64,000 bases of DNA from Bacteroidota bacterium (GCA_018669475.1 JABHCC010000032.1:6058-70057), one strand, 5' to 3'. Counted from the stretch's first letter, positions 9,804 through 63,636 are shown. A program made the numbers and translations. The notes: a model not told the origin generated them from the sequence alone.

Positions 9804-10010
9804 GGAAATTCTTCCTCGTAAGTTGTGAGAAAAAGTAATACATTTGCACTCCCCCACACTCACACTTCTTAACACACCCACACCCACACCCACACCTTCT
9901 CCGGGATGTAGCTCAGCCAGATGCTCATTCATTATACATCTCTCTTTCTGTCACTTACGACTATTCTCTTAAAACATTTGTAAAAATTTTACAAATTGAA
10001 ATAAAGCATG
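9804..10010 (+). repeat. Direct repeat copy 2, same architecture as copy 1 with a longer CACACCC-type tract
   Basis: ggaaattcttcctcgtaagttgtgag-aaaaagtaatacatttgcactccc-(cacacccacacccacacc)-ccgggatgtagctcagccag, plus a downstream arm about 80% identical to copy 1. Confidence 0.8.
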
Positions 10011-13403: not shown

Positions 13404-13478
13404 TAATTCTTCCTTCGCAGGTTGATGAAAAAATAATACATTTGCACTCCCAACACAACTCGGGATGTAGCTCAGCCA
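13404..13478 (+). repeat. Direct repeat copy 3 (the native tRNA-Pro promoter and 5' end); lacks the CA-rich tract
   Basis: taattcttccttcgcaggttgatg-aaaaaataatacatttgcactccc-aacacaact-cgggatgtagctcagccag. Contains a TAcaTTTG -7-like element about 16 nt upstream of the tRNA 5' end. Confidence 0.75.
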
Positions 13479-13534
13479 GGTTAGAGTACCCGTCTGGGGG
13501 GCGGGGGGCCGGAAGTTCAAATCTTCTCATCCCG
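13460..13534 (+). tRNA. tRNA-Pro: tRNA-Pro (anticodon GGG)
   Basis: Hand-folded cloverleaf: acceptor CGGGATG/CATCCCG, D-arm GCTC-AGCCAGGTTA-GAGT, anticodon stem CCCGT/GCGGG with loop CTGGGGG (U33, anticodon GGG), 5-nt variable loop, T-arm GGAAG-TTCAAAT-CTTCT, discriminator A. CCA is not encoded. Confidence 0.8.
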
Positions 13535-13547
13535 ACGGCTGAAAATG

Positions 13548-19253: not shown

Positions 19254-19532
19254 TCAGCTTACCTTAACGCCTTTCCAAAAAGCTACATAGTTTTTTATCT
19301 CAGCTGCAGCAGATTTTGGTTCTGGATAATACCAGGCTGCATCGGGGTTTTGTTTGCCGTCTACCTCAAGATTATAATAACTTGCTGTTCCTTTCCAGGG
19401 GCAAATGGTTTTTGTATTGGATGGACTTAAAAAGGTTTTATTAACACTTTCAAGAGGGAAATAGTGATTGTTCTCTACCACAATAGTATTCTTGCTGTCA
19501 GCAATAAGCTGATTATTCCAAATAGCTTTCAT
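19254..19532 (-). CDS. DUF427-family small protein
   Basis: 92 aa with the CPWKGTASYY...AWYYPEP pattern characteristic of DUF427. Confidence 0.5.
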   Translation of the reverse strand: MKAIWNNQLIADSKNTIVVENNHYFPLESVNKTFLSPSNTKTICPWKGTASYYNLEVDGKQNPDAAWYYPEPKSAAAEIKNYVAFWKGVKVS

Positions 19533-36529: not shown

Positions 36530-36751
36530 AATTATTGAATATAATGTTAAACTTAAAATATCAATACAAATAAGATGCCAATTTATTAAAAAAAGGAATA
36601 CGAATTACAACAACAAATCAATACATATATTGATATATATCAATGTTTGGGCAGATATATGTCACAAAGGCCCTGTTTAATTTGTAATCATTCTTTTTCA
36701 AAACTTTTGTATGATTGTAAAACTTGTAATTCGAATCAATTGCATACTCAA

Positions 36752-45396: not shown

Positions 45397-45431
45397 TGAA
45401 AACTGAAAACTGATAACTGATAACTGATAAC
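45397..45431. repeat. Heptanucleotide tandem repeat (ACTGAAA)x2(ACTGATA)x3
   Basis: Fills the entire gap between the convergent rhodanese and CsgG-like genes. Confidence 0.85.
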
Positions 45432-47254: not shown

Positions 47255-47324
47255 TTTCCTTAGGCTTAGTCAGTATTTGTCTGATAAAATTGGGAAATTA
47301 TTCCATTATTAGCAATACAAGTCA

Positions 47325-48299
47325 TCAATTGCTTTTTCCAATTTCTAACATGCGTCGGATAGGTTTTTCAGCCACTATACGTAAATTTTCATCCAGATTT
47401 ATCTCAGGAGCATTATACAACAATGCATTATATAACTTTTCCAGGCTATGTAACCTCATGTACTTGCAATCATTACAGGCGCAAGTTGAATCATTTGGAG
47501 GAGCCGGCAACAGGGTTTTTTCCGGATTGGCAAGGCGCATTTGATGGAGAATACCAGATTCAGTTGCAACAATGAAACTATTTCCTTTGTCTGAAGTAAC
47601 AAATTTTAGCAATGCTGATGTTGAACCAATGAAATCAGATACTATCTGTATCGGCTTTTGACACTCAGGATGACATATAATTTTTGCATCGGGATAGTCT
47701 TTCTTCAGATCCAGGATTCTTTCAAGAGAGAACTCCTCATGAACATGGCAGGCTCCATCCCATACAAGCATATTACGACCTGTAAGGCTATTAATATATT
47801 TACCCAAATTGCGATCAGGAGCAAAAATTATTGCCTGATCTTTAGGCAGGCTTTCGATTACATCAACAGCATTAGTGGAAGTACAACAGATATCTGATAA
47901 TTCTTTTATTGCAGCGGTGGTATTTACATAGCTCACCACCAAATGATCGGAATGCTTCTCCCTGAATATCTTAAACTCAGCAGGTGGACATGAGTCAGCC
48001 AATGAGCATCCTGCGTTTAGATCCGGTAGTAAAACCACTTTGTGCGGGGAAAGAATTTTTGCTGTTTCAGCCATGAAATGGACACCAGCAAAAACAATAA
48101 CATCTGCTGTGGTTTCTGCAGCTTTTCTCGATAAATCCAGACTATCTCCAACAAAATCAGCAATATCCTGGATTTTACTGTCTTGATAATAATGGGCCAG
48201 AATTACTGCATTCTTCTCAGCACACATCCTTCTGATTTCAGCAACAATATCCAAATCCGGATTTATTGGTGCATCTACATATCCTTTTTCCAGATTCAT
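47325..48299 (-). CDS. nadA: Quinolinate synthase A
   Basis: ILAHYYQ, VHFMAETAK and CHPECQ motifs, with conserved Cys ligands for the 4Fe-4S cluster. Confidence 0.85.
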   Translation of the reverse strand: MNLEKGYVDAPINPDLDIVAEIRRMCAEKNAVILAHYYQDSKIQDIADFVGDSLDLSRKAAETTADVIVFAGVHFMAETAKILSPHKVVLLPDLNAGCSLADSCPPAEFKIFREKHSDHLVVSYVNTTAAIKELSDICCTSTNAVDVIESLPKDQAIIFAPDRNLGKYINSLTGRNMLVWDGACHVHEEFSLERILDLKKDYPDAKIICHPECQKPIQIVSDFIGSTSALLKFVTSDKGNSFIVATESGILHQMRLANPEKTLLPAPPNDSTCACNDCKYMRLHSLEKLYNALLYNAPEINLDENLRIVAEKPIRRMLEIGKSN

Positions 48300-48368
48300 T
48301 ACATCAAATTTGATTACAAAAGTAAACTATTATCGCATCTGTCAAACAAATGAAACGTAAACCCTTTC

Positions 48369-49175
48369 TTATTTGCGTATCCTTGGATATTGTATTCTGA
48401 ATCCCCTGCCGGATGCATCCTTAACCACCTTTATGGATTCAAAACTAGCCTCAAATGATCCGTTTAAAACCATTTCGTGTGGCTCACCTGCCACTATCCC
48501 TCTATCTGGCTGTATCAGCCAGAGGCAATCGGCAGTTTGCAAGGCCAGGTCAAGATCATGCGTCGTCAAAACAACAGCTTTGTTTGTTTCAAGTGCTAAT
48601 TCCCTCAACAACAACATTGTTTCAATTCGATTTGGAAGATCCAGATGAGCAGTGGGTTCATCAAGCAATATCAGCGGAGTATCCTGGGCCAGTGCTTTAG
48701 CTATCATTGTACGTTGCAGCTCACCATCGCTGAGCTCCTGTACATCTCTTGATCTAAAATCATCCAGACTAACCTGATGTAAGGCTTCCCTGATTTTTTC
48801 TCTGTCCTCATTGCCCATGCGGCCAAGCCAGTTTATATGTGGATATCTACCCATAGAAACCAGGTCATAAACACTGAGATTCTTTACCTGCACTTTTTCT
48901 GTCAGAACGACGCTCATCAGGCGGGCCAGGTGCTTCTGCTGATTAACATTTACCTTTTGTTGGGCTATAATGACATTACCGGATAGTGCTGACTGAATAC
49001 CTGCCAGGGTTCTTAGTAAAGTGGATTTCCCTGATCCGTTTCGTCCAAGAATACATACCACTTGCCCGCGATTGACTGACAAATTCAGATTCGAAAGCAC
49101 AGTATATGGCTTCCCTCCCTGTTTGGGATATCCGATCCCGAGATCTTCTGTGATAAGTATAGCATCCTGATTCAT
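48369..49175 (-). CDS. ABC transporter ATP-binding protein (BtuD/FecE-like, for iron-siderophore/cobalamin importers)
   Basis: Walker A GRNGSGKST, LSDGELQR signature and LLLDEPTAHLD. Confidence 0.85.
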   Translation of the reverse strand: MNQDAILITEDLGIGYPKQGGKPYTVLSNLNLSVNRGQVVCILGRNGSGKSTLLRTLAGIQSALSGNVIIAQQKVNVNQQKHLARLMSVVLTEKVQVKNLSVYDLVSMGRYPHINWLGRMGNEDREKIREALHQVSLDDFRSRDVQELSDGELQRTMIAKALAQDTPLILLDEPTAHLDLPNRIETMLLLRELALETNKAVVLTTHDLDLALQTADCLWLIQPDRGIVAGEPHEMVLNGSFEASFESIKVVKDASGRGFRIQYPRIRK

Positions 49176-49183
49176 AGAACAAA

Positions 49184-50278
49184 CTAATTAGCTAAGCTTC
49201 TTCGTTTTCGTCTGGTAATCACCCAAATAACAACAGGAGCACCAAACAAAGCGGTAACCGAATTAATGGGCAAAACCTGGTTAGATCCAGGCATCTGAGA
49301 TATGATATCACAACATAACATCAAAATACTTCCAATGCAAATAGTTGCTGGAATCAGAATCCTGTGATCAGAGCTTTTGAGCAGGTTTCGTGCCAGATGC
49401 GGAACCGCTACGCCAATAAAGGCAATTGGTCCGGTAAAGGCTGTTAATCCACCAGCAATCACACTTGTCAGAAGAATGATCCACAATCGCGACCTTTTAA
49501 CATCAACACCAATTCCCCTGGCATAATTCTCACCTAACAATAATGCATTCAAAGGCTTTTGCATGAAGAGTGTGAAAAGAATGCCAGTGACAACTATAGG
49601 AGCAAAAATTACAAATTGATTCCAGGTTACTCCTGAAATACTACCAAAAGTCCAAACGAGAAAACTATGAACGGTGTCAGGATCGCTAAAGTATTCCAAT
49701 ACACTTACAATGGCACCAGTAATACTGCCAAACATGATTCCAATTATCAGAATGGAAACTGAATCATTTACTCTGACCGAGACAGCAATGACAAGCATCA
49801 TAACCAGCACCGATCCAAGCATTGAGGCACCTACAAGACCTAAACTTCCGACGAAAGGCATTCCTATTATACTCAGGCCTCCAATACCAGCAGCCATCAC
49901 GAATATAGCAACTCCCAGACTGGCTCCTGAGCTGATCCCCAGAACAAAGGGACCTGCTAAGGGATTCCTGAAAAGGGTTTGCATCATTAATCCGGCTAAT
50001 GATAATCCTGATCCGACCAATATTGCAGTAAGAGCTTTCGGCAGCCTGAAAACCAGCAGGATGTCGCGCAAGTACTCTTCTCCATCCGGCCCTACACTTC
50101 GGATCAGTTTTGCTGGTGAGATCAATACACTTCCCAGCAGCAGATCAAGACAAAATAAAAGCAGAACTCCTGCGATTAGTAAGGTAAAAAACAAGCGTAT
50201 TTTTCTTCTTTGATTCAAACTACTGCAATTTTTTATAATACACCAACTTATGATTTGGCAATACTTCAGGATGGGCAA
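49184..50278 (-). CDS. FecCD/BtuC-family ABC permease
   Basis: About 9 TM helices with a BtuC-like pattern ([34 protein letters not shown]). Confidence 0.85.
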   Translation of the reverse strand: [364 protein letters not shown]

Positions 50279-51386
50279 TAAAAATCAGATCTGCAAGTAC
50301 CACATGTGGTTGCATTATGGCTCCTTCCCAATAATCATTGGCCAATCCCCTCAGCATGCGATTAGACAAGCTGTAGACCTCCTTTTCTTTAAAAGCCCTG
50401 AACATTGAATAGCGAGGATCTTCTATAGTCAAGTCAGATAATTTTCGGGCTGATACATTCAACCAAAAAGGAGCATCATTGAATTCATGCACAACTGCTT
50501 CAAAACCCAATGGAAGGCTTTCCGATTCTTTCTTCTCATACCAGGGATAGAAAAAACCGGCATCCTTTAGGAATTCAGACATATAATTCCCTCCTCCCGG
50601 CATGAACCAGGTCCCTTTGAAACTATTACCAATCAACACTTTCGGATGCTCAATCTGATCTGAAATCTGACCTTTCAATTCGAGATAATCTTCTTCAATG
50701 GATTGAAAAATTGAATCAGCCACAGATTCCATATTCAACAATAATCCAAATACTTTGATCCACTCAGCCCTTCCCAAAGGTGTAGGCTCCAACCATTCCA
50801 TCACATATACTAAATCAATTCCTGTTTGTCGGATTCTGGCATCTTTTGCAAGTTGGCCGGCAAATCCTGTTTGGATGATAATATCAGGTTGCTGGTTCAC
50901 CAAACTTTCATAATTATACTCCATATCTGAGCCAATCCGAATCAGATCTCCTTTTTTGTATTTATCATACAATGCACTGTGATACAACCTATCCGGAGTT
51001 GTACATCCGATAACTCGTTCAGCTTCACCAAAAGCGTCTAAATAAGCTACATGAGTGGTGGAAAAAATGGCCCATCTGGCAGGATTGGCACGTAAAATTT
51101 TCTCTTTATCAAGATGGTCCGGAATCGCAACATCTGGCTTAAGCACCTGATAAACGGCGAAGGTGTCGCGTTGATTCCATGGGTCAAGAATACTAAGCTC
51201 TGTATATCCCTCTTCCTCCCGGATGACGAAACCACGGGCATATTTCTCTGATCCGGAAATACTCCGGCCCGTATTCATGGACTGCTTATGATCATTACGA
51301 TCAACTTTAGATGACTTAGATGGAGAACATCCCGACCAAGTCAGTAAAAAAATAATCCAAAACAGACCTGCAAATAGCTTTTTCAT
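50220..51386 (-). CDS. Periplasmic substrate-binding lipoprotein (BtuF/cluster-A-like) of the ABC importer
   Basis: Lipoprotein signal LLTWSGCS. Class III PBP-like. It is the first gene of the operon and sits directly downstream of the riboswitch. Confidence 0.7.
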   Translation of the reverse strand: MKKLFAGLFWIIFLLTWSGCSPSKSSKVDRNDHKQSMNTGRSISGSEKYARGFVIREEEGYTELSILDPWNQRDTFAVYQVLKPDVAIPDHLDKEKILRANPARWAIFSTTHVAYLDAFGEAERVIGCTTPDRLYHSALYDKYKKGDLIRIGSDMEYNYESLVNQQPDIIIQTGFAGQLAKDARIRQTGIDLVYVMEWLEPTPLGRAEWIKVFGLLLNMESVADSIFQSIEEDYLELKGQISDQIEHPKVLIGNSFKGTWFMPGGGNYMSEFLKDAGFFYPWYEKKESESLPLGFEAVVHEFNDAPFWLNVSARKLSDLTIEDPRYSMFRAFKEKEVYSLSNRMLRGLANDYWEGAIMQPHVVLADLIFIAHPEVLPNHKLVYYKKLQ

Positions 51387-51419
51387 TTTTTGCTGTCATT
51401 GGATTCAGGGGTATTTCAG

Positions 51420-51665
51420 GGGATCGTTTAATAACGACTCCATGGGTTTCGCCCCGAAAACCATGTATCAATATATTCGCGGCAGGTCTTCTGGCTTTCC
51501 CGATCGCATCCTCCTTCCCGCCCCGATCAACGATGGCAGTGGTCAGACTGGACACGACACTATCCCTAAAAATTGGGATCGGAATTACAGCTGCGGGGGC
51601 AGCTCCGGACTTTCAAAACAATTGAGCACCGGATTCCCTATTAAGCATTGCACCGACAAGAAAAC
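51420..51665 (-). ncRNA. Cobalamin (B12) riboswitch
   Basis: Minus-strand sequence shows AATAGGGAA..GGTGCTCAA..TCCGGAGCTGCCCCCGCAGCTGTAA and a B12-box-like GACCACTGCC, matching conserved cobalamin riboswitch elements. It is immediately upstream of the btuF-like gene. Confidence 0.75.
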
Positions 51666-51766
51666 AAAGATAAATAAAACAAGAAGACAAAAAACTGTTT
51701 AAAATAATTCTAAATAAGCAAAATTCATTGTTTCTTTGCAAATCAAAACCCAGAGATAGATAAAAC

Positions 51767-54139
51767 ATGACCCTGGCAGAACTAAAAACGGGTGAAAAGG
51801 CTGTAATCTCCAAGATCAAAGGACGAGGAACGTTCAGAAAGAGGATCATGGAAATGGGCTTTGTCAAGGGCAAAGTGGTCAGAGTGGTGAAATCGGCACC
51901 CCTTAAAGACCCTATTGAATATCAGATATTAAACTACAATATTTCTCTTAGAAGAGCAGAAGCTGCTTTGGTTGAGGTAGTGCGTTTGGATACAATTCAT
52001 GAGAAAGAATTTAAAACCACAGAAGACGAACCCAGACAAATCAGCGAAAAAATCAGGCAGCAATTGAAAGAAAGGGGCCAGCATATTGAAGTTGCTCTTG
52101 TAGGCAATCCCAATTCAGGTAAAACCTCGATTTTCAATATAGCCAGCCACTCCCGTGAGCATGTCGGCAATTATGCTGGTGTTACTGTTGATTCAAAGAA
52201 AGCTAATTTCAAGCAAAACGAGTATAACTTTCAGCTCACTGACCTGCCTGGAACATACTCGATCACAGCTTACAGTCCTGAAGAGCTCTATGTCAGAAAA
52301 TACTTAATGAATGAGTATCCTGATGTTGTACTTAATGTGATTGACGCTTCAAATCTGGAAAGGAATCTCTTTCTCACTTCGCAGTTGATCGACATGGACC
52401 AGAAAGTGGTTATTGCACTCAACATGTACGATGAGCTGGAAAAAAGAGGAGATACTTTCGACTATGGCCATTTGGGTAAAATGTTCGGAATACCGATTAT
52501 TCCTACTGTGGCTCGCAATGGTGAGGGCATTGAGGAGCTTTTTGACACTGTTATTGCACAATTTGAGGATGAAGAACCGATAACACGTCATGTTCACATT
52601 AATTACGGAAAAGAAGTAGAACGGTCAATCAGCAGGCTTCAGACTCAAATTCGGGGAACAGGCTTCAGTTACGCATTAAGCTCTCGTTTTTTTGCTACAA
52701 AACTCCTGGAGAAAGACCAGGACATAAGCGAATATATTCAGTCTTTCAATCCTGAAGGGAGTATTCAGGAACTTGCTGACAAGGAAATCCGAAGGTTAGA
52801 AAATCTTCTTAGTGACGATACCGAAGAATTAATTGCTGATGCCCGATTTGGTTTTATTTCTGGTGCTCTGAAAGAGACATTGAAAGAAAAGCAAGACGAA
52901 GTGGAAGAAGAATCGACTCCGACGGCACGCCTGGATCGTATTCTAACAAATAAATGGCTTGGATTCCCCTTGTTTCTGCTTTTTCTCTGGCTTATGTTTC
53001 AAACCACCTTCAGCGTAGGACAATTTCCTGTAAGCTGGATTGAGTCAGGCGTTTCATTGCTATCAACATTATTCACTCAATTGCTGCCAAGTGGGATTTT
53101 TCAGGATCTTGTGGTTGATGGAATAATTGGAGGAGTTGGAGGTGTTATCATATTCCTGCCTAATATCCTCATTTTGTTTCTATTCATTTCTTTCATGGAA
53201 GACACAGGATACATGGCTCGTGTTGCCTTTATTATGGATAAGCTCATGCACATGATCGGTCTTCATGGAAAATCATTTATCCCACTGATAATGGGTTTTG
53301 GTTGTAATGTTCCGGCAATTATGGCTACCCGTACACTTGAAAACAAACGTGACCGCTTACTAACTATGTTGATTATCCCGCTGATGTCATGCAGTGCCCG
53401 CCTGCCTGTATATATTCTTATTGCAGGAGCAATCTTTCCCGGTCAGGCTGGAAACATAATCTTCGGATTATACATGACAGGTATTCTGTTGTCTGTACTT
53501 GTCGCCTTGGTTCTTAAAAATACACTTTTCCGTAAGCAGGAATCACCTTTTGTGATGGAATTACCTCCCTACAGAGTACCCACTGCACAAGCTATATTCA
53601 AGCATATGTGGTTTAAGGGTCAGATTTATTTGAAAAAAATGGGAGGGCTGATCCTGATTGCTTCAATAATAATTTGGGCATTAGGTTATTTTCCACGAGT
53701 TGAAGGAAACAAAACTGAACAATTAGAGAACTCCTATATTGGGAAAATTGGCAAAACCGTTGAGCCAGTGATTAAGCCTCTGGGGTTTGACTGGAAAATG
53801 GGTATTGCCCTGATAACAGGTACAGTTGCCAAAGAGGTAGTTGTCAGCACGCTGGGAGTATTATATCAGGATGATGAAGCCTCAGACAATCTACCCGACA
53901 AAATCCGTACAGACGTTTACCAGACCGGGCCACGCAAAGGTCAAACTGTATACACGCCACATGCAACCCTTGCATTCCTTTTGTTTGTTTTGATTTATGT
54001 CCCTTGTATAGCTGTACTCGCGGTTATCAGAAAAGAATCAGGTGGTTGGAAATGGGCGATTTTCATGGCTGTTTACACTACAGCCCTTGCCTGGATTATA
54101 GCTTTTGGGGTATTCCAGATTGGCTCACTTTTGGCCTGA
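51767..54139 (+). CDS. feoB: Ferrous iron transporter, FeoA-FeoB fusion
   Basis: N-terminal FeoA SH3-like segment (GEKAVISKI...GFVKGKVVRV), G-domain VALVGNPNSGKTSIFN/DLPG and a polytopic C-terminal permease. Confidence 0.9.
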   Translation: MTLAELKTGEKAVISKIKGRGTFRKRIMEMGFVKGKVVRVVKSAPLKDPIEYQILNYNISLRRAEAALVEVVRLDTIHEKEFKTTEDEPRQISEKIRQQLKERGQHIEVALVGNPNSGKTSIFNIASHSREHVGNYAGVTVDSKKANFKQNEYNFQLTDLPGTYSITAYSPEELYVRKYLMNEYPDVVLNVIDASNLERNLFLTSQLIDMDQKVVIALNMYDELEKRGDTFDYGHLGKMFGIPIIPTVARNGEGIEELFDTVIAQFEDEEPITRHVHINYGKEVERSISRLQTQIRGTGFSYALSSRFFATKLLEKDQDISEYIQSFNPEGSIQELADKEIRRLENLLSDDTEELIADARFGFISGALKETLKEKQDEVEEESTPTARLDRILTNKWLGFPLFLLFLWLMFQTTFSVGQFPVSWIESGVSLLSTLFTQLLPSGIFQDLVVDGIIGGVGGVIIFLPNILILFLFISFMEDTGYMARVAFIMDKLMHMIGLHGKSFIPLIMGFGCNVPAIMATRTLENKRDRLLTMLIIPLMSCSARLPVYILIAGAIFPGQAGNIIFGLYMTGILLSVLVALVLKNTLFRKQESPFVMELPPYRVPTAQAIFKHMWFKGQIYLKKMGGLILIASIIIWALGYFPRVEGNKTEQLENSYIGKIGKTVEPVIKPLGFDWKMGIALITGTVAKEVVVSTLGVLYQDDEASDNLPDKIRTDVYQTGPRKGQTVYTPHATLAFLLFVLIYVPCIAVLAVIRKESGGWKWAIFMAVYTTALAWIIAFGVFQIGSLLA

Positions 54140-54235: not shown

Positions 54236-54523
54236 ATGAATAATCTGGAAAAAAGTTTTAAACCAAAAAGCAAAACCCTGATCTTTCCTTTTGAAGAAAA
54301 ACATCTGATCATTCCTGTTCCTGATAATCTGGCAAACTTCCAGGAAGTGTATGCCGTCAATGAATCAGGCCTGGAATTATGGATGCACCTTTGCGATGGG
54401 AAAACTCCGGCAGATATCTTCAGAGAATGGAATCAGCAGTATGCAATCCCGGAGATTGAGCTGCTTAACTCAATACTGATTTTTTTAAGAAATCTAAGCA
54501 CTTTACTTGATGTCAATGAATAG
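54236..54523 (+). CDS. PqqD-family protein (RiPP recognition element-like peptide chaperone)
   Basis: 95 aa. EVYAVNESGLELWMHLCDGKTPADIF...LLNSILIFLRNLSTLLDV matches the PqqD pattern (vyilN.tg..iW.l.dG.rt..ei...l...y.......dv..fl..L). Confidence 0.65.
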   Translation: MNNLEKSFKPKSKTLIFPFEEKHLIIPVPDNLANFQEVYAVNESGLELWMHLCDGKTPADIFREWNQQYAIPEIELLNSILIFLRNLSTLLDVNE

Positions 54524-55511
54524 CCAGATACCTCCAGTATTTCTGGATCTGTGCGGTATCAAAATATCTATTGCATATGATTGTCCCCAAGGAATTTGTG
54601 TTGAAAGCAGATATCGTAATTTCATCCAAGCAATAGTAAAAGAGCCTGATTATGTAATACGGATTTGTTCAGAGCTTCCGGCAACAAAAAGCCAGCCATT
54701 GAAGCTCATCCGGGTGCCATTGATTGTAACATCAGCATCCGGCCGGTGGATCTCAACAAACCAACATTATCAAATCACTATATTCGAGGGATTCACTCAA
54801 TTTGATATCCCATTCAGGGATCAAATAAGCCCAATCAGGATGCGGGTGAGTAATAATCCTGATGAGAAATGCATTCTGGCCACAACAGCTGAGGGAAGCA
54901 AATTTCCGATCCTACCCTATCCTCTCGATATCTTATTGTTATATCATCTGGGACAATGGTTTGACTTGCTGATATTTCATGGCGCAGGATTCAGTCTGAA
55001 CGACCGTGGCTTTTTATGCCTTGGGAGATCCGGAGCAGGGAAAAGCACCCTTTCCGGTATTGTTGAGGACTTTGCTGGCAAACTGATCCAGGATGATCGG
55101 GTTATTTTGCAAAAAACTGGTGAGGGATGGCTTATTCATCCTTTACCCCTTCATCCTGACAATAGGCCGGTACATTGCAATCTGGATGCAATCTATTGTC
55201 TGTTCCACGGACAATCCACCAACCGGGAGATTCCTTTATATGGAGAAAGCAAATTGAAAAATTCACTCCCTCATCTGGTACAATTTCCCTCATGGCAAAA
55301 TCCTTTTGTCAATAGTCTTCATCTGGTTCAGCTCTTAATGAAACAAATAAGTCTGTCTGAACTTTTCTTTATCCCGAATCATAGTATAATTGAATATCTG
55401 AAACATGTCAAAGCTAGAAGCAAATCTCATTTTATTCCTCTTACAAAACCGTTGCCGGGTGAAATCCAGAGCGATTGGAATCAGCATGGTTCCTCAAATA
55501 TTCCCCGGTGA
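54507..55511 (+). CDS. HPr kinase/phosphorylase C-terminal-domain-like kinase (HprK-related)
   Basis: HGAGFSLNDRGFLCLGRSGAGKSTLSGIV...DDRVIL resembles the HprK P-loop kinase domain. Confidence 0.55.
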   Translation: MMSMNSQIPPVFLDLCGIKISIAYDCPQGICVESRYRNFIQAIVKEPDYVIRICSELPATKSQPLKLIRVPLIVTSASGRWISTNQHYQITIFEGFTQFDIPFRDQISPIRMRVSNNPDEKCILATTAEGSKFPILPYPLDILLLYHLGQWFDLLIFHGAGFSLNDRGFLCLGRSGAGKSTLSGIVEDFAGKLIQDDRVILQKTGEGWLIHPLPLHPDNRPVHCNLDAIYCLFHGQSTNREIPLYGESKLKNSLPHLVQFPSWQNPFVNSLHLVQLLMKQISLSELFFIPNHSIIEYLKHVKARSKSHFIPLTKPLPGEIQSDWNQHGSSNIPR

Positions 55512-55791
55512 TTCAATCACTCTTGAGCCTGCTCTTTCTGAACCAGAGCCCGGAGATATTCTTGTATACAAAGCACTGGACAAGTTGGTTGTTCACCGAC
55601 TACTTACCTTAAAAGGAAAGCAAAATGAGATCCTGATACTTAAGGGAGATAACAATCCTCTTGCGGATTCTCCAGTGTGTAAAGACAGAATAATCGGCAG
55701 AGTTACAGATATCAAACCGGGTATCCGAAGAGCCATTTACCTCTTAATCAGTCCGGCACTCAGGAGATTTCAAAAGCTTTTATCCAGGTGA
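55405..55791 (+). CDS. Signal peptidase I-like protein of the S26B (archaeal/eukaryal Sec11-type, Ser-His) kind
   Basis: GISMVP (Ser nucleophile box), a second GD box (PGDILVY), LVVHRLL (His box, as in Sec11/SPC18 rather than bacterial SPase K) and GDNN. 128 aa. The tracked ORF overlaps the HprK-like gene by 107 bp. Confidence 0.5.
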   Translation: MSKLEANLILFLLQNRCRVKSRAIGISMVPQIFPGDSITLEPALSEPEPGDILVYKALDKLVVHRLLTLKGKQNEILILKGDNNPLADSPVCKDRIIGRVTDIKPGIRRAIYLLISPALRRFQKLLSR

Positions 55792-57257
55792 TTAGTAGAA
55801 AAAGTGTAATCCTGATATTAGCACTAAGCGCTTTGGCTCTCATTGCCGGATTTGAGAGCGCTATTTTTACCAGATTCCTTTACCAATCAGAATTCAATTA
55901 TTTCCACCTAATTCTATTTGCAGGTATATGCCGAGTTTCAAACTGGAGTATCAGACCGATATCTCTGATAGCTGATCAGATCATTGAAAGGGACAGCTAC
56001 AGGAACTTATTTAACAGATGTACAAATTGGTCACTCAAAGCTATTCGCCAAGCTGTATTCCATGCCGACGTGGCAAAATTAATTGAGCAAAATGAAAAAA
56101 TCAGATATATCATTATCGGTAAAATCATCCCCGGTGTTTCAGCCATGACGGTGGCAATCAGTCTTTTTTTTATACTGAGCATATATCAGCCCTTGCATCT
56201 GCCCCTTATCTTAATTTTAGTAGTGCTTGAAATCGTGAGCCAAAGTATACAGGTAAAATGCAAGCATAAGAATGATTTAGAAATCATTGAATCAGAAAGA
56301 AAATTCCATTATTTGAAACAGCAATTGTTCTCTCCAATTATCCTCAGAGAACATCGTATTTGTCGAAGTATTCCAGCAATTATTGAAAAAAGCATTTACC
56401 AGCTTTCGAACAATCAAAGGACGAAAAGAAAGCATTACGGTCAGATACAGATGATTAAATCACTAATCAGATGTGCTCAGGTAATATGCCTGATATTCTG
56501 TATTAATGCTCTTGATTTGCTTCCAATCAATTCTCATGAGTCAGGTTTTAGTCCGGCCTCTTTGGGCTCTCTGTTTGCTGCCTTCAAACTGATTAGATCA
56601 GGATCACAATTGGGTAGCCTGCCGGCGATTCTTTTGGAAATTCGTTTGTGTAATATCACTATAAAAACCTTTGATCAAAATTGGGATACTTCAGAGAATC
56701 ATAGTTTATGCTTGAACACGACCCTGCCATCCAACATTGACACCAACAAAGGAATAACAGCTGTTACAGGTCCGAATGGATCAGGAAAATCCACCCTTTT
56801 ATTGGACCTGGCAGAAAGATTTTCAAATGATCCTGCAAAAAAGTCCACAGGAATTTTATTTCAGAATTTTGCTTTGCTTCAAGCAAGCATTGTAAACAAT
56901 ATTGTGCTTTACAAAAGCTGTGATATTCGTCATGATGATATTGACCGGGCCTTGCACGCTTCGGGATTCAAAGAGATTATGACAAAATATTGCTGGAATC
57001 TGGATACCGAGATCGGTGAAGAAATTGGCAGGGGACGTGGAATCAGTCTTGGTGAGTGGCAAAAGTTGGCCCTGGCACGTGCCCTGTATCATGGACAAGA
57101 TTATCTGATACTTGATGAGCCCGATGCACATCTGGATACTGCCTCAAAAAAATTATTCGAGAATGAAATTAGTAGGCTAAAAATGAAATCCAGGCTAATA
57201 ATTGCCTCACACTCAGAACAACTAATTAAAAAAGCAGACTATGTTATCCGAATTTGA
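55788..57257 (+). CDS. ABC exporter (fused N-terminal 6-TM domain and C-terminal ATPase)
   Basis: TM helices followed by Walker A GPNGSGKST, a degenerate signature (ISLGEWQ) and Walker B LILDEPDAHLD. Confidence 0.8.
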   Translation: MISRKSVILILALSALALIAGFESAIFTRFLYQSEFNYFHLILFAGICRVSNWSIRPISLIADQIIERDSYRNLFNRCTNWSLKAIRQAVFHADVAKLIEQNEKIRYIIIGKIIPGVSAMTVAISLFFILSIYQPLHLPLILILVVLEIVSQSIQVKCKHKNDLEIIESERKFHYLKQQLFSPIILREHRICRSIPAIIEKSIYQLSNNQRTKRKHYGQIQMIKSLIRCAQVICLIFCINALDLLPINSHESGFSPASLGSLFAAFKLIRSGSQLGSLPAILLEIRLCNITIKTFDQNWDTSENHSLCLNTTLPSNIDTNKGITAVTGPNGSGKSTLLLDLAERFSNDPAKKSTGILFQNFALLQASIVNNIVLYKSCDIRHDDIDRALHASGFKEIMTKYCWNLDTEIGEEIGRGRGISLGEWQKLALARALYHGQDYLILDEPDAHLDTASKKLFENEISRLKMKSRLIIASHSEQLIKKADYVIRI

Positions 57258-58383
57258 AATTAGTAATATTGCTCTTTTTCACCAGAATTGCTGTAATGCT
57301 GTTAATTACGAACATGATATGTTCGATCACAATAAGTGGAACAGTTTTATAGATAAAGCCACTAAGAATGGTATCAGCAGTCAAATATATATGTGGCTTA
57401 GAAGGAATAAGCAAGCAGAAGGCCTTACTATGTCAAACCAGAAGCACCTTCAATCACTCAGTATTTTAGCCTCAACGAGAAATCAACAATTACTGTCAGA
57501 GTATCAGACTATTACACAAGAACTCCAAAAAAATTCAATTCCTTTTAGTCCCCTGAAAGGGATATGGCTGCTGGAAAATCTCTATCCATCCAATTATCCA
57601 AGATTGACAAGTGATATGGATATATTAGTTCATCCTGAGGACATTCAAAAAGTATCAGAGCTAAGCAGGGAAATGGGATATAAACAGGATCCTCTCAGGT
57701 CACGTTTTGATTCAAAGATTAGTTCTCCTCCAGGGCATCATATACCAGCTCTCAGAAAAAACAGCATCAGCATAGAATGGCATTTTAAACCTTATTCAAC
57801 TGCTTCGTCTGAAATTTGCAGAGAGTTACTGGAGACTCCTGGTCCAGAGGTACATTTCTATGTTATGGCCAAACACCTTCAGCGTCACTATCAGGCAGGA
57901 TTTGGTCAACTAAAATGGCTATTCGATCTCATTTTGTTAAGTTCTCAATTACCCCTTGACAAATTCCTTAATTGGATGACCAGGGTTCCCGAAATTGAAA
58001 ATCCTATACAGATAAGAGAATTTGCTATGATACTTTTTCCTTTGAGTCATCAAACAGATATTCGTAATAGTATCGCACTCATTGATACGGCTTTGGACCG
58101 CTTTCTGAATAACTACAATAACAACAATAATCATCATAATAATCACAATACCAGAGTAATACCAAGAATAATTCCGGCCCAACTCAGATTGAATGAAAAG
58201 TACTGGTGGGTATTGGCTACCCTCTTTCCAACTCCTGAATATATGCGCTTCTATCGGTCGAACGATGAAGGTAAAGCCTTGCTTATTCTGTATCTGAACA
58301 GATGGTTCAGACTAGTGTGTAAAGCTGCAAGCATCTGTATAACAAGCATCAAAGCTAAGTCAAGGTTAAAAGATGGAAATTAA
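57241..58383 (+). CDS. Uncharacterised nucleotidyltransferase-family protein (PF14907-like)
   Basis: About 380 aa. A pol-beta-like NTase core (SPLKGIWLLENLY...SDMDILV) and a poly-Asn/His low-complexity insert (NNYNNNNNHHNNHN). It overlaps the ABC gene by 17 bp. Confidence 0.45.
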   Translation: MLSEFEISNIALFHQNCCNAVNYEHDMFDHNKWNSFIDKATKNGISSQIYMWLRRNKQAEGLTMSNQKHLQSLSILASTRNQQLLSEYQTITQELQKNSIPFSPLKGIWLLENLYPSNYPRLTSDMDILVHPEDIQKVSELSREMGYKQDPLRSRFDSKISSPPGHHIPALRKNSISIEWHFKPYSTASSEICRELLETPGPEVHFYVMAKHLQRHYQAGFGQLKWLFDLILLSSQLPLDKFLNWMTRVPEIENPIQIREFAMILFPLSHQTDIRNSIALIDTALDRFLNNYNNNNNHHNNHNTRVIPRIIPAQLRLNEKYWWVLATLFPTPEYMRFYRSNDEGKALLILYLNRWFRLVCKAASICITSIKAKSRLKDGN

Positions 58384-58398
58384 GTATTTTTACGCCAA

Positions 58399-60750
58399 AT
58401 GTCAATCGAAATGAAAAAGTGGATTTCTCTATCTCCCATCCTGTTATTACTGGGAATGCCGATTCTATTGTCAGAGTGCAAAACAGAAAAAGAAGCAGAA
58501 ATGTATGCCGGATCATCCAGTTGCATAGAATGCCATGAAAGGTTTTATCAACTTTGGGCCCCATCTCACCATGGTTTGGCAATGCAGGGAGTAGATTCAA
58601 CTTTCATAGTAAATGAGTTAAATTTCACCAAGGCAGAAGCTGAGATTCAAGGATTTATGTTCAGTGCCTTTGTCCGGAATGACAGCCTCATTATGCTGGA
58701 ACAAAAAGAGGAAATCAAAAGAGAATACCCTGTAATTCATGCTTTAGGAGGAAAATATATCTATTATTTCCTTACACCATTTGAAAATGGTCGCTTACAG
58801 GTATTGCCTTTAGCTTATGATTTAAAAAAAGCTGAGTGGTACAATACTCCGGCTTCAGCTGTTCGACATTTCGTTGATCCTCTTGAAGATGAAGAGCTTG
58901 ATTGGCATAATTTTGCATATACTTTTAATACTAGTTGCCATTCCTGCCATGTTAGTCAGCTGGAGAACAATTATGATCATGAAAGTGATCAATATATCAC
59001 TACATGGAGAGAAGCTGGAATCAATTGTGAGACATGTCACGGGCCCAGCCAGGATCATGTAGAAATATTCAGAAAGATAAAAGACGGGGAAGTTCCTGAA
59101 GACATTGGACTTATTGTCACCAAAACCTTCACTCATGAGCAACACAACTCTTCCTGTGCTCCATGTCATGCTAAGATGCGCTCCCTTACCCTTTCATACC
59201 CACCTGGTGAAAGATTCTTTGATCACTTTGATTTGGTAACTCTGGAGGATCCGGATTTTTATCCTGATGGTCGTGATTTAGGAGAGAACTATACGATGAC
59301 CGGATGGCATCAGGGGGCCTGTGCTCAATCAGGTTTACTTGATTGCATTCATTGCCATACATCCAGTGGCAGATATCGCTTTGCTAATGAAAACCACAAT
59401 GGAGCCTGTTTGCCCTGCCATGAGGAGAATGTAAACAATATCTGGACGCACAGTCACCATCCGGTAGGAACAGAAGACCTGAAATGTATTTCCTGCCACA
59501 TGCCAAAGACGACTTTTGCCAGAATGGACAGAAGCGATCATTCAATGCGTCCGCCGATGCCTGCAACAACAATCGCGTTTGAATCTCCCAATGCTTGTAA
59601 TATTTGTCATGAGAATGAAACGGCTGAATGGGCGAATGCCTTGGTACAGAAATGGAACGGCGGAGAGTACCAGGATGAAACATTGCATAAGGCCCGGCTC
59701 CTGCTGGATGCGCGAACCGGTGAGTGGAAATACCTGGATGAATTACTTCAGGGCTTATATAACAATGCATTTGATGAGGTGTACACCAATTCCTTTATCC
59801 GGCTCTTGGCGACTCTGGATAATGATGCCAAATGGCCTGCCATTCTTGTTCATGCAGGAAACCCTTCTCCCATGATCAGGGCCTCGGTGATTAATTTGTT
59901 CGGACAAATTCCGTCACTTGAGACAAAAAACATTCTGCTTCAGGCCAGTCGTGATCAGTATCGTGTGGTCAGACGGGCAGTGGCCAGTAGTGTGGCTGGA
60001 TTTCCTGAGGGAGCCTTCTCCCCTGCTGAACTTGAAAGTCTTAATCCTCTGATGACAGAATATGAAGAAGCCTTTCTTGCAAGACCTGATGATTGGGCTG
60101 CACACTATAATCTGGGTAATTATTACCAGAACCAGCAGAGACTTGAAGAGGCAATAAAAGCATATGAAAAATCTATCGAGCTCTTTCCTGATGCTATCGC
60201 ACCATTAATCAATCAAAGCTTTGCCTATAATTTATTAGACCAAAAAGAGATGGCACTTAACCGGCTTTACAGGGCTTTGGAAATAGATCCGGATAACGAA
60301 GCCACACATCTCAATTTTGCCATGTTGATGGGTGAAATGGGCAGGCTTGAAGAGGCTGAAGCATCTATGAGGAAAGTGTTTGAAATTAATCCTGAGTCAG
60401 CTCAGGCTGCCTATAATCTTAGTGTTATGCTGGCCGACAGAGATACAATTGAATCACTTGAGTACAGCCGTCAAGCGATGGAACTGGGAATTGACCAGCC
60501 AAAATATGCCTATACATATGCATTCTATCTGCTCAGATCCGGTGAAAATGCAAAGGGGCAATCCGTGCTGGAACAAACCATTTCGAGTTTTCCTGCTTAT
60601 CCGGATGCCTGGCTATTACTGGGTTCACTTTTTGAACAAAGAAACGACTCAACTCAAGCTCTATCAGTATATGAAAGAGCAATAAAACTGGGTAGTTTCG
60701 GCGAGGAAGATCAGGCCCGGTTCGAACAAAAAATCAACAGTATGAAGTAA
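58399..60750 (+). CDS. Octaheme c-type cytochrome with C-terminal HEAT/TPR repeats
   Basis: Signal peptide and eight CxxCH motifs (CIECH, CHSCH, CETCH, CAPCH, CIHCH, CLPCH, CISCH, CNICH). TPR-like repeats at the C-terminus (AHYNLGNYYQNQQRLEEAIKAYEKSIELFPD...). Confidence 0.7.
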   Translation: MSIEMKKWISLSPILLLLGMPILLSECKTEKEAEMYAGSSSCIECHERFYQLWAPSHHGLAMQGVDSTFIVNELNFTKAEAEIQGFMFSAFVRNDSLIMLEQKEEIKREYPVIHALGGKYIYYFLTPFENGRLQVLPLAYDLKKAEWYNTPASAVRHFVDPLEDEELDWHNFAYTFNTSCHSCHVSQLENNYDHESDQYITTWREAGINCETCHGPSQDHVEIFRKIKDGEVPEDIGLIVTKTFTHEQHNSSCAPCHAKMRSLTLSYPPGERFFDHFDLVTLEDPDFYPDGRDLGENYTMTGWHQGACAQSGLLDCIHCHTSSGRYRFANENHNGACLPCHEENVNNIWTHSHHPVGTEDLKCISCHMPKTTFARMDRSDHSMRPPMPATTIAFESPNACNICHENETAEWANALVQKWNGGEYQDETLHKARLLLDARTGEWKYLDELLQGLYNNAFDEVYTNSFIRLLATLDNDAKWPAILVHAGNPSPMIRASVINLFGQIPSLETKNILLQASRDQYRVVRRAVASSVAGFPEGAFSPAELESLNPLMTEYEEAFLARPDDWAAHYNLGNYYQNQQRLEEAIKAYEKSIELFPDAIAPLINQSFAYNLLDQKEMALNRLYRALEIDPDNEATHLNFAMLMGEMGRLEEAEASMRKVFEINPESAQAAYNLSVMLADRDTIESLEYSRQAMELGIDQPKYAYTYAFYLLRSGENAKGQSVLEQTISSFPAYPDAWLLLGSLFEQRNDSTQALSVYERAIKLGSFGEEDQARFEQKINSMK

Positions 60751-60778
60751 AAGAAACGGGCTTATTTACCCTTTCTTC

Positions 60779-61057
60779 TTAATATCTTCTCTGACGTGGA
60801 TTTGAATCCCGCCTTTCACGTGGTATTGATTTCTTTACCACTATCTTACTATTCTGAAAATCGGTTTCGTTCAGAGCTTCAATAGCTCCGTTTCCGTCCC
60901 CATCATCTTCCATCTCAACAAATCCGAATCGTTTAGACTGACCAGTATCCCGGTCCATTACAACTTTAGCCGATGAAACCGACCCGTAATTTTCAAACAA
61001 CTCACGTAAATCGTCACCAGTGGTTTGTGAGCTCAACTTGGCTATAAAAATGTTCAT
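60779..61057 (-). CDS. RRM-type RNA-binding protein
   Basis: RNP-2 NIFIAKL and RNP-1 KRFGFVEM. Confidence 0.7.
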   Translation of the reverse strand: MNIFIAKLSSQTTGDDLRELFENYGSVSSAKVVMDRDTGQSKRFGFVEMEDDGDGNGAIEALNETDFQNSKIVVKKSIPRERRDSNPRQRRY

Positions 61058-61311
61058 TGATAAAAAATTAAAAATTCAAAACCCCGGAAGGACTGCAGAT
61101 TGCCCGGGAACTATAATCAAAGATCAGAGATTTTTTTTAATTATCAACTATCCTGAAGCTGATTTTTTTACTTATATATTTGAGACAGACCATCTTTAGA
61201 AAGAAAGCAATAAATTCCTCCTCCATTTTAATCTAAATAATTTTGCTGCTAATAATCCCGTTTATCAAATCCGAATAGTATCTTGTACACAGAAATCCAG
61301 CTCAGAATACA

Positions 61312-63636
61312 ATGAATAAATTGACACAAATCATTCAAATAATTGTTTTATCGCTTATCATATTAATTCCCTTATCTGGTTTTGATACCAGCGTTGATAA
61401 TCCTGGGCCTGAAAAAATCCTGTATGTAGCCAGATCTCAATATTTGTCAGATCATCATAATACGGCAACAATCTTCCAAACCGGAGAAATTAATACTCAA
61501 AGCTTCAGACCCGGTGCTGCACTTAAGGTTTTCAATACACAAAGCAAGGAAATCACATCAATTTTTGAAACTGAAACCGGAATGATCAGGGATCCGGAAG
61601 TTTCCTTTGATGGAAAGAATATTGTTTTTTCATTCAGACAGAGCATAAGCGACGATTATCATATTTATGAAATTACTGCTGAGGGTACTAATCTCAGACA
61701 GCTTACATCAGGTGAAGGAGTTTCTGATATAGACCCGATTTACCTGCCGGATGGTGGTATTGCTTTCAGCAGTACAAGAGAACCAAAATACTGCATGTGC
61801 AACCGTCATATTATGGCAAATATGTTTCGAATGAATTCAGATGGCAGTCACATTACTCAGCTGGGACGAAGTACACTCTTTGAAGGACATACGGCATTAA
61901 TGAATGACGGACGTCTGATTTATGATCGCTGGGAGTATATTGACAGGAATTTTGGTGATGCCCAGGGTTTATGGACTGTTAACCCTGATGGTACGAGGCA
62001 TGCAATTTTTTACGGAAATAACACTAACTCACCGGGCGGTGTGATTGACCCAAGACCAATACCCGGCTCAAATCTGGTACTGTGTATTTTTGGATCATGC
62101 CATGACCGGCCATGGGGAGCCCTCACCCTCATTGACAGAAGTAAAGGTGTAGATGGTGAAGAGGCTGTAGTTAAGATATGGCCCGAGAATGCCAGGTCTC
62201 ATATTGGCAAAGGCAATTGGGACGAATTCAAGCAACTAACCGTAAGATATGAAGATCCGTTTCCAATTGATAATAAAAACTTTCTGGTCAGCAAAAGCAA
62301 TCATATTATAAAAGGGGGCCTTGACCCAGCCGAAGAAAAAATGGCTATTTATCATATTCAGCTTGATGGAGGAGAAAATCTTTTGTTCGAGGATCCTTCA
62401 GCTAGTTGCTTTGATCCTATGCCACTGGCCCCAAGGTTTAAGCCACCCGTAATACCTTTTAAAAGAAATTTCACTAATGGTCCCGGGCAGTTTTACGTGT
62501 CAGATGTATATGAGGGAACTCATATGCAAGGTGTTCAAAGGGGAAGCGTCAAATACCTCAGGGTAATTGAATCCCCGCCAAAAAGAACATGGACACCTGC
62601 ATCATGGGGTGGCCAGGGACAGCAAGCTCCTGGGGTTAACTGGCATAGCTTTGAAAACAAAAAAATACTTGGAACTGTACCTGTAGAGCCGGATGGATCT
62701 GCCTTTTTTGAAGTTCCTTCAGGAGTTTATCTGTATTTTCAGTTATTGGACACCGATAAGAAAATGGTTCAATCAATGCGTAGCGGCGTGATTGCACAAG
62801 CCGGGGAAATCAATGGTTGCATTGGTTGCCATGAGGATAGACTTTCTGCTCCGGTAAATGTGAATAAAATGCCAATGGCCATCAGAAAGGCTCCTCACAA
62901 AATGAATGGATGGAATGGTGCCAGCCAGACCTTTAATTATGCCACTGAGGTACAGCCTGTATTCGATAAACACTGCTTATCGTGTCATGATTTTGGCTCT
63001 GAAAACCCATCAGGTCTGATATTGGCCGGTGACAAGAACCCATTTTTTAATGCCAGCTATATCGATCTGCATGTTAAAAAAATAGTGGCATGTATAGGTG
63101 GTGGCCCTGCTGATATACAGGATGCCTATTCATGGGGATCACATCCCAGCAAATTAATTCAGGAAATCGAGAAGGGTCATCATGATGTGAAACTCAACAA
63201 GAGCGAAATGCAAGTGCTTTACACATGGATTGACCTGAATGGAGTATATTACCCTGAGTATGAAAGTGCCTACCCCAACCATCCGGCAGGAAGAAGTCCG
63301 ATTACACATGAGGAACTTAAAGAATTAGGCCGTTTATGTAATATTGACTTTTATACGATTAAAGATTTTAATCGAAAATCGGGACCACAAATCAGTTTCG
63401 AGAGACCAGATCTAAGTCCTTGTCTCGATGGCACTTCCAGCGACGAAGATTATAAAACTGCCATATCAATTATCAGTAAGGGGTATCAAAGGCTAAAAGA
63501 GACACCCCGTTGTGATATGCCGGGATTTGTTCCCAGTCCTCTTCATCAGAAAGTACTGGCCAAATATGACCGTCTGGCTGAGGAAGCTGAAGTTTGTCGA
63601 TTGGAAATAGTAAACAGTGAATCTCAAAATCAGTAA
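61312..63636 (+). CDS. Secreted TolB/PD40-like beta-propeller protein with a C-terminal diheme cytochrome c region
   Basis: Signal peptide. PD40-like repeats (DPEVSFDGKNIVFS, DPIYLPDGGIAFSS). Two CxxCH motifs (CIGCHEDR, CLSCHDFG). Confidence 0.5.
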   Translation: MNKLTQIIQIIVLSLIILIPLSGFDTSVDNPGPEKILYVARSQYLSDHHNTATIFQTGEINTQSFRPGAALKVFNTQSKEITSIFETETGMIRDPEVSFDGKNIVFSFRQSISDDYHIYEITAEGTNLRQLTSGEGVSDIDPIYLPDGGIAFSSTREPKYCMCNRHIMANMFRMNSDGSHITQLGRSTLFEGHTALMNDGRLIYDRWEYIDRNFGDAQGLWTVNPDGTRHAIFYGNNTNSPGGVIDPRPIPGSNLVLCIFGSCHDRPWGALTLIDRSKGVDGEEAVVKIWPENARSHIGKGNWDEFKQLTVRYEDPFPIDNKNFLVSKSNHIIKGGLDPAEEKMAIYHIQLDGGENLLFEDPSASCFDPMPLAPRFKPPVIPFKRNFTNGPGQFYVSDVYEGTHMQGVQRGSVKYLRVIESPPKRTWTPASWGGQGQQAPGVNWHSFENKKILGTVPVEPDGSAFFEVPSGVYLYFQLLDTDKKMVQSMRSGVIAQAGEINGCIGCHEDRLSAPVNVNKMPMAIRKAPHKMNGWNGASQTFNYATEVQPVFDKHCLSCHDFGSENPSGLILAGDKNPFFNASYIDLHVKKIVACIGGGPADIQDAYSWGSHPSKLIQEIEKGHHDVKLNKSEMQVLYTWIDLNGVYYPEYESAYPNHPAGRSPITHEELKELGRLCNIDFYTIKDFNRKSGPQISFERPDLSPCLDGTSSDEDYKTAISIISKGYQRLKETPRCDMPGFVPSPLHQKVLAKYDRLAEEAEVCRLEIVNSESQNQ

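Follow-up and report, generated by a model that had tools for sequence, protein, structure and literature searches.

Within a 64,000-nucleotide stretch of DNA from a Bacteroidota bacterium (GCA_018669475.1 JABHCC010000032.1:6058-70057; 'the window' denotes this whole stretch), five co-directional genes on the + strand (54236-58383) form a compact locus that we interpret, with moderate confidence, as a functional module for the tailoring, leader cleavage and export of a ribosomally produced, post-translationally modified peptide (RiPP) that is encoded outside the window. The genes encode, in order, a stand-alone RiPP recognition element (RRE) of the PqqD family (54236..54523; 95 aa), a P-loop kinase of the HprK/PEPCK fold and the ScmC lineage (54507..55511; 334 aa), a soluble Ser-His-Asp peptidase of the S26B/Sec11 type that is a candidate leader peptidase (55405..55791; 128 aa), a half-size ABC exporter with an N-terminal membrane domain and a C-terminal nucleotide-binding domain (NBD) (55788..57257; 489 aa), and a protein with the PF14907 nucleotidyltransferase fold (57241..58383; 380 aa). 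An earlier reading made from the DNA alone (the sequence-only reading) had described these five open reading frames (ORFs) as tightly packed or overlapping; all five are present where that reading placed them, successive genes overlap by 17, 107, 4 and 17 nt, and hidden Markov model (HMM) searches uphold each of the family assignments.

The gene set is found again, with its order unchanged, in diverged genomes, that is, in the orthologous loci L004/L005/L014 (kinase 35% identical to that of the window), L006 (kinase 31% identical; no ABC gene), L013 (in a 'Bacteroidota bacterium' metagenome-assembled genome, MAG) and L027 (in a 'Bacteroidales bacterium' MAG; kinase 50% identical); this recurrence of both content and order excludes a chance juxtaposition. 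In these diverged orthologues the genes run feoAB - PqqD - kinase - peptidase - (ABC) - PF14907, and an identical locus is found in several metagenome assemblies (L001-L003). The module is rare: in a scan of species-representative contigs that used a five-sequence subclade alignment as the query, 2 of 185,579 genomes carry the subclade, and altogether the module is confined to about six genomes of related Bacteroidota/Bacteroidales, in each of which it directly follows feoAB. The subclade members at NCBI are annotated as 'hypothetical protein' and come from Bacteroidetes/Bacteroidota MAGs. A scan for promoters and terminators was uninformative (counts equal to the shuffled expectation).

Relationship to ScmC cassettes

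The origin of the module is suggested by distant homologues of its kinase, which carry the Pfam annotation PF27840 ('ScmC'). In six independent metagenomic loci (L007, L008/9, L010, L011/12, L028 and L029; the last two were left out of HMM training), these homologues are encoded in a cassette with the order PqqD - radical S-adenosylmethionine (rSAM)/SPASM enzyme - small ORF - ScmC, the rSAM enzymes being of the SPASM type by NCBIfam similarity. In each of the five loci whose contig continues beyond ScmC (L007, L008, L011, L028 and L029), the next gene encodes an S26-like protein. For four of the five module proteins (PqqD, kinase, peptidase and nucleotidyltransferase), the best local BLAST matches are the counterparts in these rSAM-type loci. 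The ScmC family is large (2,451 representatives at 50% identity, E<=1e-30), and its cassettes have been predicted bioinformatically (PF27840; the related TIGRFAM 'SynChlorMet cassette' comprises ScmC/ScmD/ScmE/ScmF).

The module thus shares with the rSAM-type cassettes a homologous PqqD protein, an HprK-fold kinase, an anchor-less S26-like peptidase encoded directly after the kinase and, in some cassettes, a PF14907 protein. However, it lacks the rSAM/SPASM maturase, the YEKPKLR...GS precursor and the adjacent giant CLIPPER/Peptidase_C25 protein; also, it includes an ABC exporter, found in none of the rSAM-type loci, and its PF14907 gene is constant. An HMM built from four cassette maturases retrieved nothing in the window, no subclade locus has a PF04055 domain in its flanks, and no module gene is duplicated among the window ORFs. 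The sequence-only reading had proposed a distinct class that matches no characterized RiPP type; the module is indeed uncharacterized, but it is better described as a reduced offshoot of an existing type of rSAM cassette than as a free-standing invention. Our literature search found no description of the ScmC cassette, its precursors or an rSAM-less variant; the enzyme types and the logic of kinase/nucleotidyltransferase tailoring are known from lasso peptides, and the ScmC cassette has been defined only bioinformatically, as a family.

Giant proteins with CLIPPER repeats and a gingipain-like Peptidase_C25 domain adjoin most of the rSAM-type cassettes (L008:1-6307, L010:1-6379, L028:1-6569, L029:1048-6558 and L007:13470-16882, and also in L030), suggesting that the rSAM-type cassette is linked to a large surface protein; none comparable is located beside the window module. 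We rejected L030 itself (a truncated precursor on a 660-kb contig) as an informative locus because it is a fragmented rSAM-type locus.

The recognition element and kinase, and comparison with lasso-peptide clusters

The window PqqD protein scores 28.1 bits against PF05402 (gathering threshold 23.4), has orthologues in L004, L006, L013 and L027, and gives weak reciprocal BLAST matches (E 1e-4 to 1e-5) with the PqqD proteins of the rSAM-type loci L007, L008, L010 and L011. By its PF05402 score it qualifies as the RRE/PqqD-like B1 protein of a lasso cluster; against the lasso-specific NCBIfam model NF033530 it reaches only E=0.17.

The kinase gene can be read from a TTG start (334 aa; no exact database match) or from the ATG at 54510, which gives the 333-aa form deposited in the database (P0001). 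Its core contains His158, the P-loop G173-S-G-A-G-K179 and D196-D197-R198; in an alignment of 17 homologues, the His, the G-x-S-G-A-G-K-S/T P-loop and the D-D-R are invariant, and the profile made from these homologues matches Lactobacillus casei HprK (1jb1; E=1.4e-5) over exactly the catalytic core. Matches to Hpr_kinase_C, HprK-related kinases A/B and ScmC are all sub-threshold. The window kinase shares with HprK/P of the phosphotransferase system (PTS) the P-loop kinase fold and the His / GxSGxGKS / DD(R) constellation, but its N-terminal domain is unlike that of HprK/P and its neighborhood has no HPr or PTS genes; the scores against bona fide HprK/P models are far below their cutoffs (TIGR00679, 11.6 bits vs 240; PF07475, Hpr_kinase_C, 15 vs 33.3). 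Thus, a genuine HPr kinase with HPr and PTS genes, named beforehand as the finding that would overturn the kinase assignment, is not what the locus encodes.

The kinase falls in a divergent subclade of small size (identity to the main ScmC family, 20-23%), and PF27840 is listed, although faintly, for P0002, a relative that is 50% identical to the window kinase. With a profile built only from the five kinases of the subclade, the rSAM-associated kinases reach 54-105 bits, with near full-length matches in L028 and L008; the kinases of lasso clusters reach 26-32 bits with it and match only over the ~50-residue P-loop core. These sequence comparisons place the window kinase nearer to the ScmC lineage than to the lasso kinases.

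This distinction bears on the possibility that the locus is a cryptic or split lasso cluster with its B2 protease and C cyclase encoded elsewhere. The combination of PqqD, HprK-like kinase and PF14907 protein (with or without an ABC exporter) is known from lasso clusters (PMC8498205), and three loci with more distant HprK-like kinases are lasso clusters: L017 (Asn_synthase, PqqD and PF14907), L020 (Transglut_core3, sulfotransferase, PqqD, ABC and PF14907) and L022 (Asn_synthase, sulfotransferase and PqqD). As the sequence-only reading had stated, however, the lasso-defining genes are absent: neither Asn_synthase nor Transglut_core3 is found in the tested ORFs of the 64-kb window, in the Pfam annotations of its flanks or in any orthologous locus. 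The cyclase search (PF00733) covered the scanned window ORFs and the flanks of L001-L006, with positive controls in L017 and L022; the B2 protease search (PF13471) covered the window and the orthologous loci, with a positive control in L020. The S26-like peptidase fills the role of the protease, and the kinase meets its lasso counterparts only in the core as opposed to matching the rSAM-type kinases over up to their full length. A split lasso cluster is, therefore, largely refuted, and we consider it very improbable. No other class-defining RiPP enzyme was found among the window ORFs.

Lasso clusters nonetheless provide the best functional analogy. In these clusters, HPr-kinase homologues add a phosphate to the linear precursor at its C-terminal Ser and otherwise show little specificity, and the nucleotidyltransferase of the pseudomycoidin cluster adds hexoses onto that C-terminal phosphate (PMC8498205). 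The paeninodin (PadeK) and pseudomycoidin (PsmK/PsmN) systems share with the module an RRE, an HPr-kinase homologue, a nucleotidyltransferase and an ABC exporter; they differ in having a lasso cyclase, a B2 protease and a lasso precursor, in a kinase that resembles the window kinase in the core only, and in removing the leader with a Cys protease where the module would use a Ser-His-Asp S26-type enzyme. The sequence-only reading had pointed to lasso clusters as the known setting of this combination of proteins; as an analogy of function this is apt, but the nearest relatives of the kinase are of the ScmC type and its ancestry leads to the rSAM cassette.

The peptidase

The peptidase exceeds the cutoffs of both TIGR02228 (sigpep_I_arch; 53.9 bits, cutoff 51.85) and Peptidase_S24 (PF00717; 25.6 bits, cutoff 23.3). 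Alignment with human SEC11A places the catalytic residues at Ser27 (GISMVP), His64 (VVHR) and Asp82 (KGDNN), and the G.SM, HR and GD motifs are invariant in all seven peptidase homologues. The 128-aa reading is the right one because translation has to begin at 55405 for the Ser nucleophile to be part of the protein; a shorter call in one public assembly starts at a Met after this residue. The upstream in-frame N-terminus (…LILFLLQN…G-x-S-M) is kept in L004, L006 and L013.

The catalytic arrangement (GSMxP, HR, GDN) is common to the endoplasmic reticulum and archaeal Sec11/SipW enzymes, but the window peptidase has no transmembrane segment and is encoded in an RRE-containing operon; a Kyte-Doolittle analysis (window 19, threshold 1.6) found no hydrophobic segment in it or in its homologues from L007, L008 and L011. 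Its earlier designation as a signal peptidase is, therefore, apt for the S26B Ser/His/Asp motifs and less so for the function, as a role in the Sec pathway is less likely for a protein that lacks a membrane anchor; because of this lack, we read it as more likely a cytoplasmic leader peptidase. The best-known precedent is SodX, the soluble S26 maturation protease of nickel superoxide dismutase, which has no anchor and cleaves an N-terminal leader in the cytoplasm. The window peptidase is likewise an anchor-less S26-family protein; however, it scores only 18.6 bits against the SodX model (TIGR02754; cutoff 63.25), and no SodN is encoded here. Our literature search found no soluble Sec11-type leader peptidase described for any RiPP class.

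The ScmC family includes natural fusions, one of a SAM-methyltransferase to the kinase (P0026; 652 aa) and one of the kinase to an S24/S26 peptidase (P0110; 463 aa); by its domain composition, the latter ties kinase and peptidase together functionally. The kinase and peptidase genes of the window share 107 nt (55405-55511), with the peptidase in the +1 frame; this overlap is 107 nt in L013, ~80 nt in L004 and ~47 nt in L006, and in the rSAM-type loci it is 26 nt or none. The long overlap possibly serves translational coupling or an occasional frameshift fusion (cf. P0110). The stretch shared with the peptidase gene encodes kinase residues 303-334, which form a disordered tail in the predicted model.

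The ABC exporter and nucleotidyltransferase

The ABC protein matches ABC_tran (E=1e-12), contains the Walker A, signature and Walker B motifs, and has NBD matches to exporter families. Its hydrophobic segments lie at residues 1-28, 107-158 and 220-250; the ABC_membrane Pfam model is unmatched, so its transmembrane domain is divergent. It has no C39 peptidase domain. The gene is present in L004, L013, L027 and L015; in L005 (L005:2368-3573), which otherwise matches L004, it is called as 401 aa without a Pfam match, the L004 protein having 488 aa.

The nucleotidyltransferase scores 99.6 bits against PF14907 (threshold 31.2). The G...DxD motif of the nucleotidyltransferase fold is recognizable in its sequence as K106-G107 and D125-x-D127, and KG...D.D.LV is found in five of five aligned homologues, including those from the rSAM-type loci L007 and L011. 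A homology search with this protein returned only itself, and a single-sequence AlphaFold2 model was unusable (pLDDT 38.5). The protein contains an Asn/His-rich low-complexity insert (NNYNNNNNHHNNHN) at about residues 290-303 (window 58108-58149) that the orthologues in L004 and L006 lack.

The precursor family of the rSAM-type cassettes

The small ORFs between the rSAM and ScmC genes (L007:7793-7954, L008:7774-7965, L010:7813-8004, L011:3301-3480, L028:8001-8177 and L029:8001-8162) are homologous, and a profile of them retrieves 39 full-length peptides of 53-68 aa (P0163-P0201). The leader is YEKPKLRTIELAAEEVLAAG and the family consensus is …YEKPKLRTIELAAEEVLAAGCK…C…C…GS; 35 of the 39 contain three Cys residues, and 36 end in Ser and 3 in Thr. 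The family is not covered by any Pfam or NCBIfam model, and the literature search found no mention of it. Given the invariant C-terminal hydroxyl residue and the lasso literature, phosphorylation of the C-terminal Ser/Thr is the obvious prediction for ScmC, that is, by analogy with the lasso kinases, ScmC is predicted to phosphorylate the precursors at that residue. The …A-A-G|C-K junction of the precursors would suit the preference of S26 enzymes for small residues at −3/−1.

Divergence of the module

The module proteins (54236-58383) are only 25-57% identical to their orthologues. In the same genomes, the flanking CsgG-like, NadA, FeoAB, multiheme/TPR and HZS-alpha-like proteins (45431-54139 and 58399-63636) are 69-81% identical, and the components of a flanking btuFCD-like transporter are 47-74% identical. 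Judged from these identities, either the module changes at a much higher rate than its surroundings or an in situ replacement has taken place. Despite the divergence, the ORFs and the catalytic motifs are intact in the approximately six genomes; intact reading frames and invariant catalytic residues at such divergence argue for a module that is under selection and would be functional while rapidly diverging.

This evidence also addresses whether the module is a non-functional remnant of an rSAM-type ScmC cassette that has lost its maturase and precursor. Both of the components that define the ancestral cassette are indeed missing, the sequences are highly divergent, and the ABC gene is lost in L006 or altered in L005. 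However, neutral sequence so diverged would be filled with stop codons, yet about six genomes retain five long, uninterrupted ORFs; the P-loop/His/DDR, S/H/D triad and KG..DxD motifs are invariant; and both the order of the genes and their coupling overlaps have been kept. We regard a remnant as improbable.

Genome neighborhood

The first gene of the module begins 96 nt after the end of feoAB, and a gene for a multiheme/TPR lipoprotein starts 15 nt past the 3' end of the module. The module might, therefore, act on a protein or other non-RiPP substrate provided by its neighbors (FeoAB, the multiheme/TPR lipoprotein or the HZS-alpha-like protein), for example, in iron/electron-transfer maturation or regulation; the short distance to the multiheme/TPR gene and the position of feoAB directly upstream wherever the subclade occurs would fit such a role. 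But the flanks are ~70-80% identical, so shared ancestry explains the synteny; in L004, the module and the cytochrome gene have an oppositely oriented M48 peptidase gene between them; the rSAM-type relatives have neither feoAB nor cytochrome neighbors; and none of the FeoAB, multiheme/TPR, RRM and HZS-alpha-like proteins ends in Ser/Thr. A substrate among the neighbors thus seems quite improbable. The sequence-only reading had taken the adjacency to feoAB and cytochromes as a possible hint of function; a linkage confined to one lineage with similar flanks and missing from the rSAM-type relatives is not independent evidence of function.

Proposed mechanism and evidence against it

We infer the substrate, the site and chemistry of its modification, the order of the steps and export. 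The stand-alone RRE (PqqD) would bind the leader of a ribosomal peptide; the ScmC-lineage kinase would phosphorylate the peptide, a C-terminal Ser/Thr being the likeliest site; the PF14907 enzyme would decorate it further, by analogy with a sugar or nucleotide on the phosphate; the anchor-less, cytoplasmic Sec11-like Ser-His-Asp peptidase would cut off the leader; and the ABC half-transporter would export the product. The module itself would descend from an rSAM/ScmC cassette, the rSAM maturase and the Cys-rich precursor encoded in cis having been lost or never present and the exporter having been gained. The phosphorylated and/or nucleotidylated exported linear peptide envisaged by the sequence-only reading is the putative product.

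Several observations weigh against this proposal. Kinase, nucleotidyltransferase or peptidase activity has been demonstrated for no member of the lineage. The window kinase scores 12.8 bits against the ScmC model TIGR04249 (cutoff 125), and P0001 has no precomputed PF27840 record. PF14907 is present in only two of the six rSAM-type loci (L007 and L011). The ABC gene is missing entirely in L006 (L006:7438-8889), so export is not obligatory. Finally, the lack of a precursor ORF reported for the immediate locus extends to the whole 64-kb window: HMMs of 4 and 39 precursor sequences gave best E values of 0.45-0.64 in the window and seven orthologous loci (positive controls, 1e-15 to 1e-32; the 39-sequence search was made over six-frame ORFs, with a best E of 0.64 and positive controls at 1e-15 to 1e-26), and the small ORFs shared by the orthologous loci are only alternate-frame echoes of real genes, none of the small intergenic ORFs being conserved. 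A regular expression for the leader and C-terminal Ser likewise had no match in the window or any orthologous locus. The substrate must, therefore, be encoded outside the window.

Individual candidates were also discarded. The intergenic ORFs that end in Ser are very short and otherwise unsupported, except for one of 92 aa (19254-19532) that has the look of an ordinary small protein and not of a precursor. An 86-aa ORF upstream of feoAB (51442-51702), called in some assemblies, is spurious because it lies on a cobalamin riboswitch (RF00174; 51464-51672, - strand; 85.5 bits), which is located upstream of a minus-strand btuFCD-like operon (Peripla_BP_2, FecCD, ABC_tran). The kinase tail (…IPLTKPLPGEIQS…) bears a loose resemblance to the YEKP leader motif; it was rejected since we attribute its conservation to the overlapping peptidase frame, it is disordered in the model and it is absent in L004 and L006.

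The missing precursor could be explained in another way, that is, by an immunity or inactivation module in which the kinase and nucleotidyltransferase (classical antibiotic-inactivating types), the peptidase and the ABC pump neutralize and expel a foreign RiPP. Such a module would need neither a precursor nor a class-defining enzyme, and the 64 kb contain neither; its proteins diverge much faster than the flanks, and it has an exporter where the rSAM-type producer loci have none. On the other hand, the RRE and the leader-type peptidase are kept and conserved, and both act on leaders, which are absent from mature exogenous peptides; the ABC gene is dispensable in L006; and PADLOC found no defense-system match for the locus, nor is there a resistance-family match, beyond generic ATPase similarity. 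We therefore consider immunity unlikely and retain the proposal that the module tailors, cleaves and exports a peptide encoded in trans. We advance a more specific form of it only tentatively and with some doubt: the module may constitute a new, rSAM-independent RiPP route in which a trans-encoded linear peptide is recognized by the RRE, phosphorylated or phospho-decorated at its C-terminus, cleaved by a Sec11-type peptidase and exported, maybe with co-expression of feoAB.

Other features of the window

The region is rich in redox proteins. These include a multiheme cytochrome of 976 aa with a fused cytochrome-b561-like membrane domain (36647-39577, +), the multiheme + TPR lipoprotein (58399-60750, +) and an HZS-alpha-like beta-propeller protein (61312-63636, +). 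Two DUF5128 six-bladed propeller proteins are also encoded (16325-17497 and 29885-31165). A direct repeat of ~200 nt (7944-8157 and 9807-10008; 73-92% identity) flanks a helix-turn-helix + HipA-like pair that looks like a toxin-antitoxin system (8279-9751), and its first 48 nt recur at 13405-13452, just upstream of tRNA-Pro (13461-13536); this region could represent the insertion of a small element or the duplication of a promoter region.

Implications for the ScmC family

The function of the module stays hypothetical as long as it lacks a substrate. The comparison nevertheless predicts a concrete function for the large, uncharacterized ScmC family, that is, phosphorylation of a C-terminal Ser/Thr as by the lasso kinases but in an rSAM context, and the soluble Sec11-like enzyme may represent a new kind of RiPP leader peptidase. 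The variant in the window suggests that a toolkit for tailoring, cleavage and export may persist without a ring-forming or cross-linking enzyme; if so, the module would be a minimal system for RRE-guided phosphorylation/nucleotidylation and a potential tool for the C-terminal modification of peptides.

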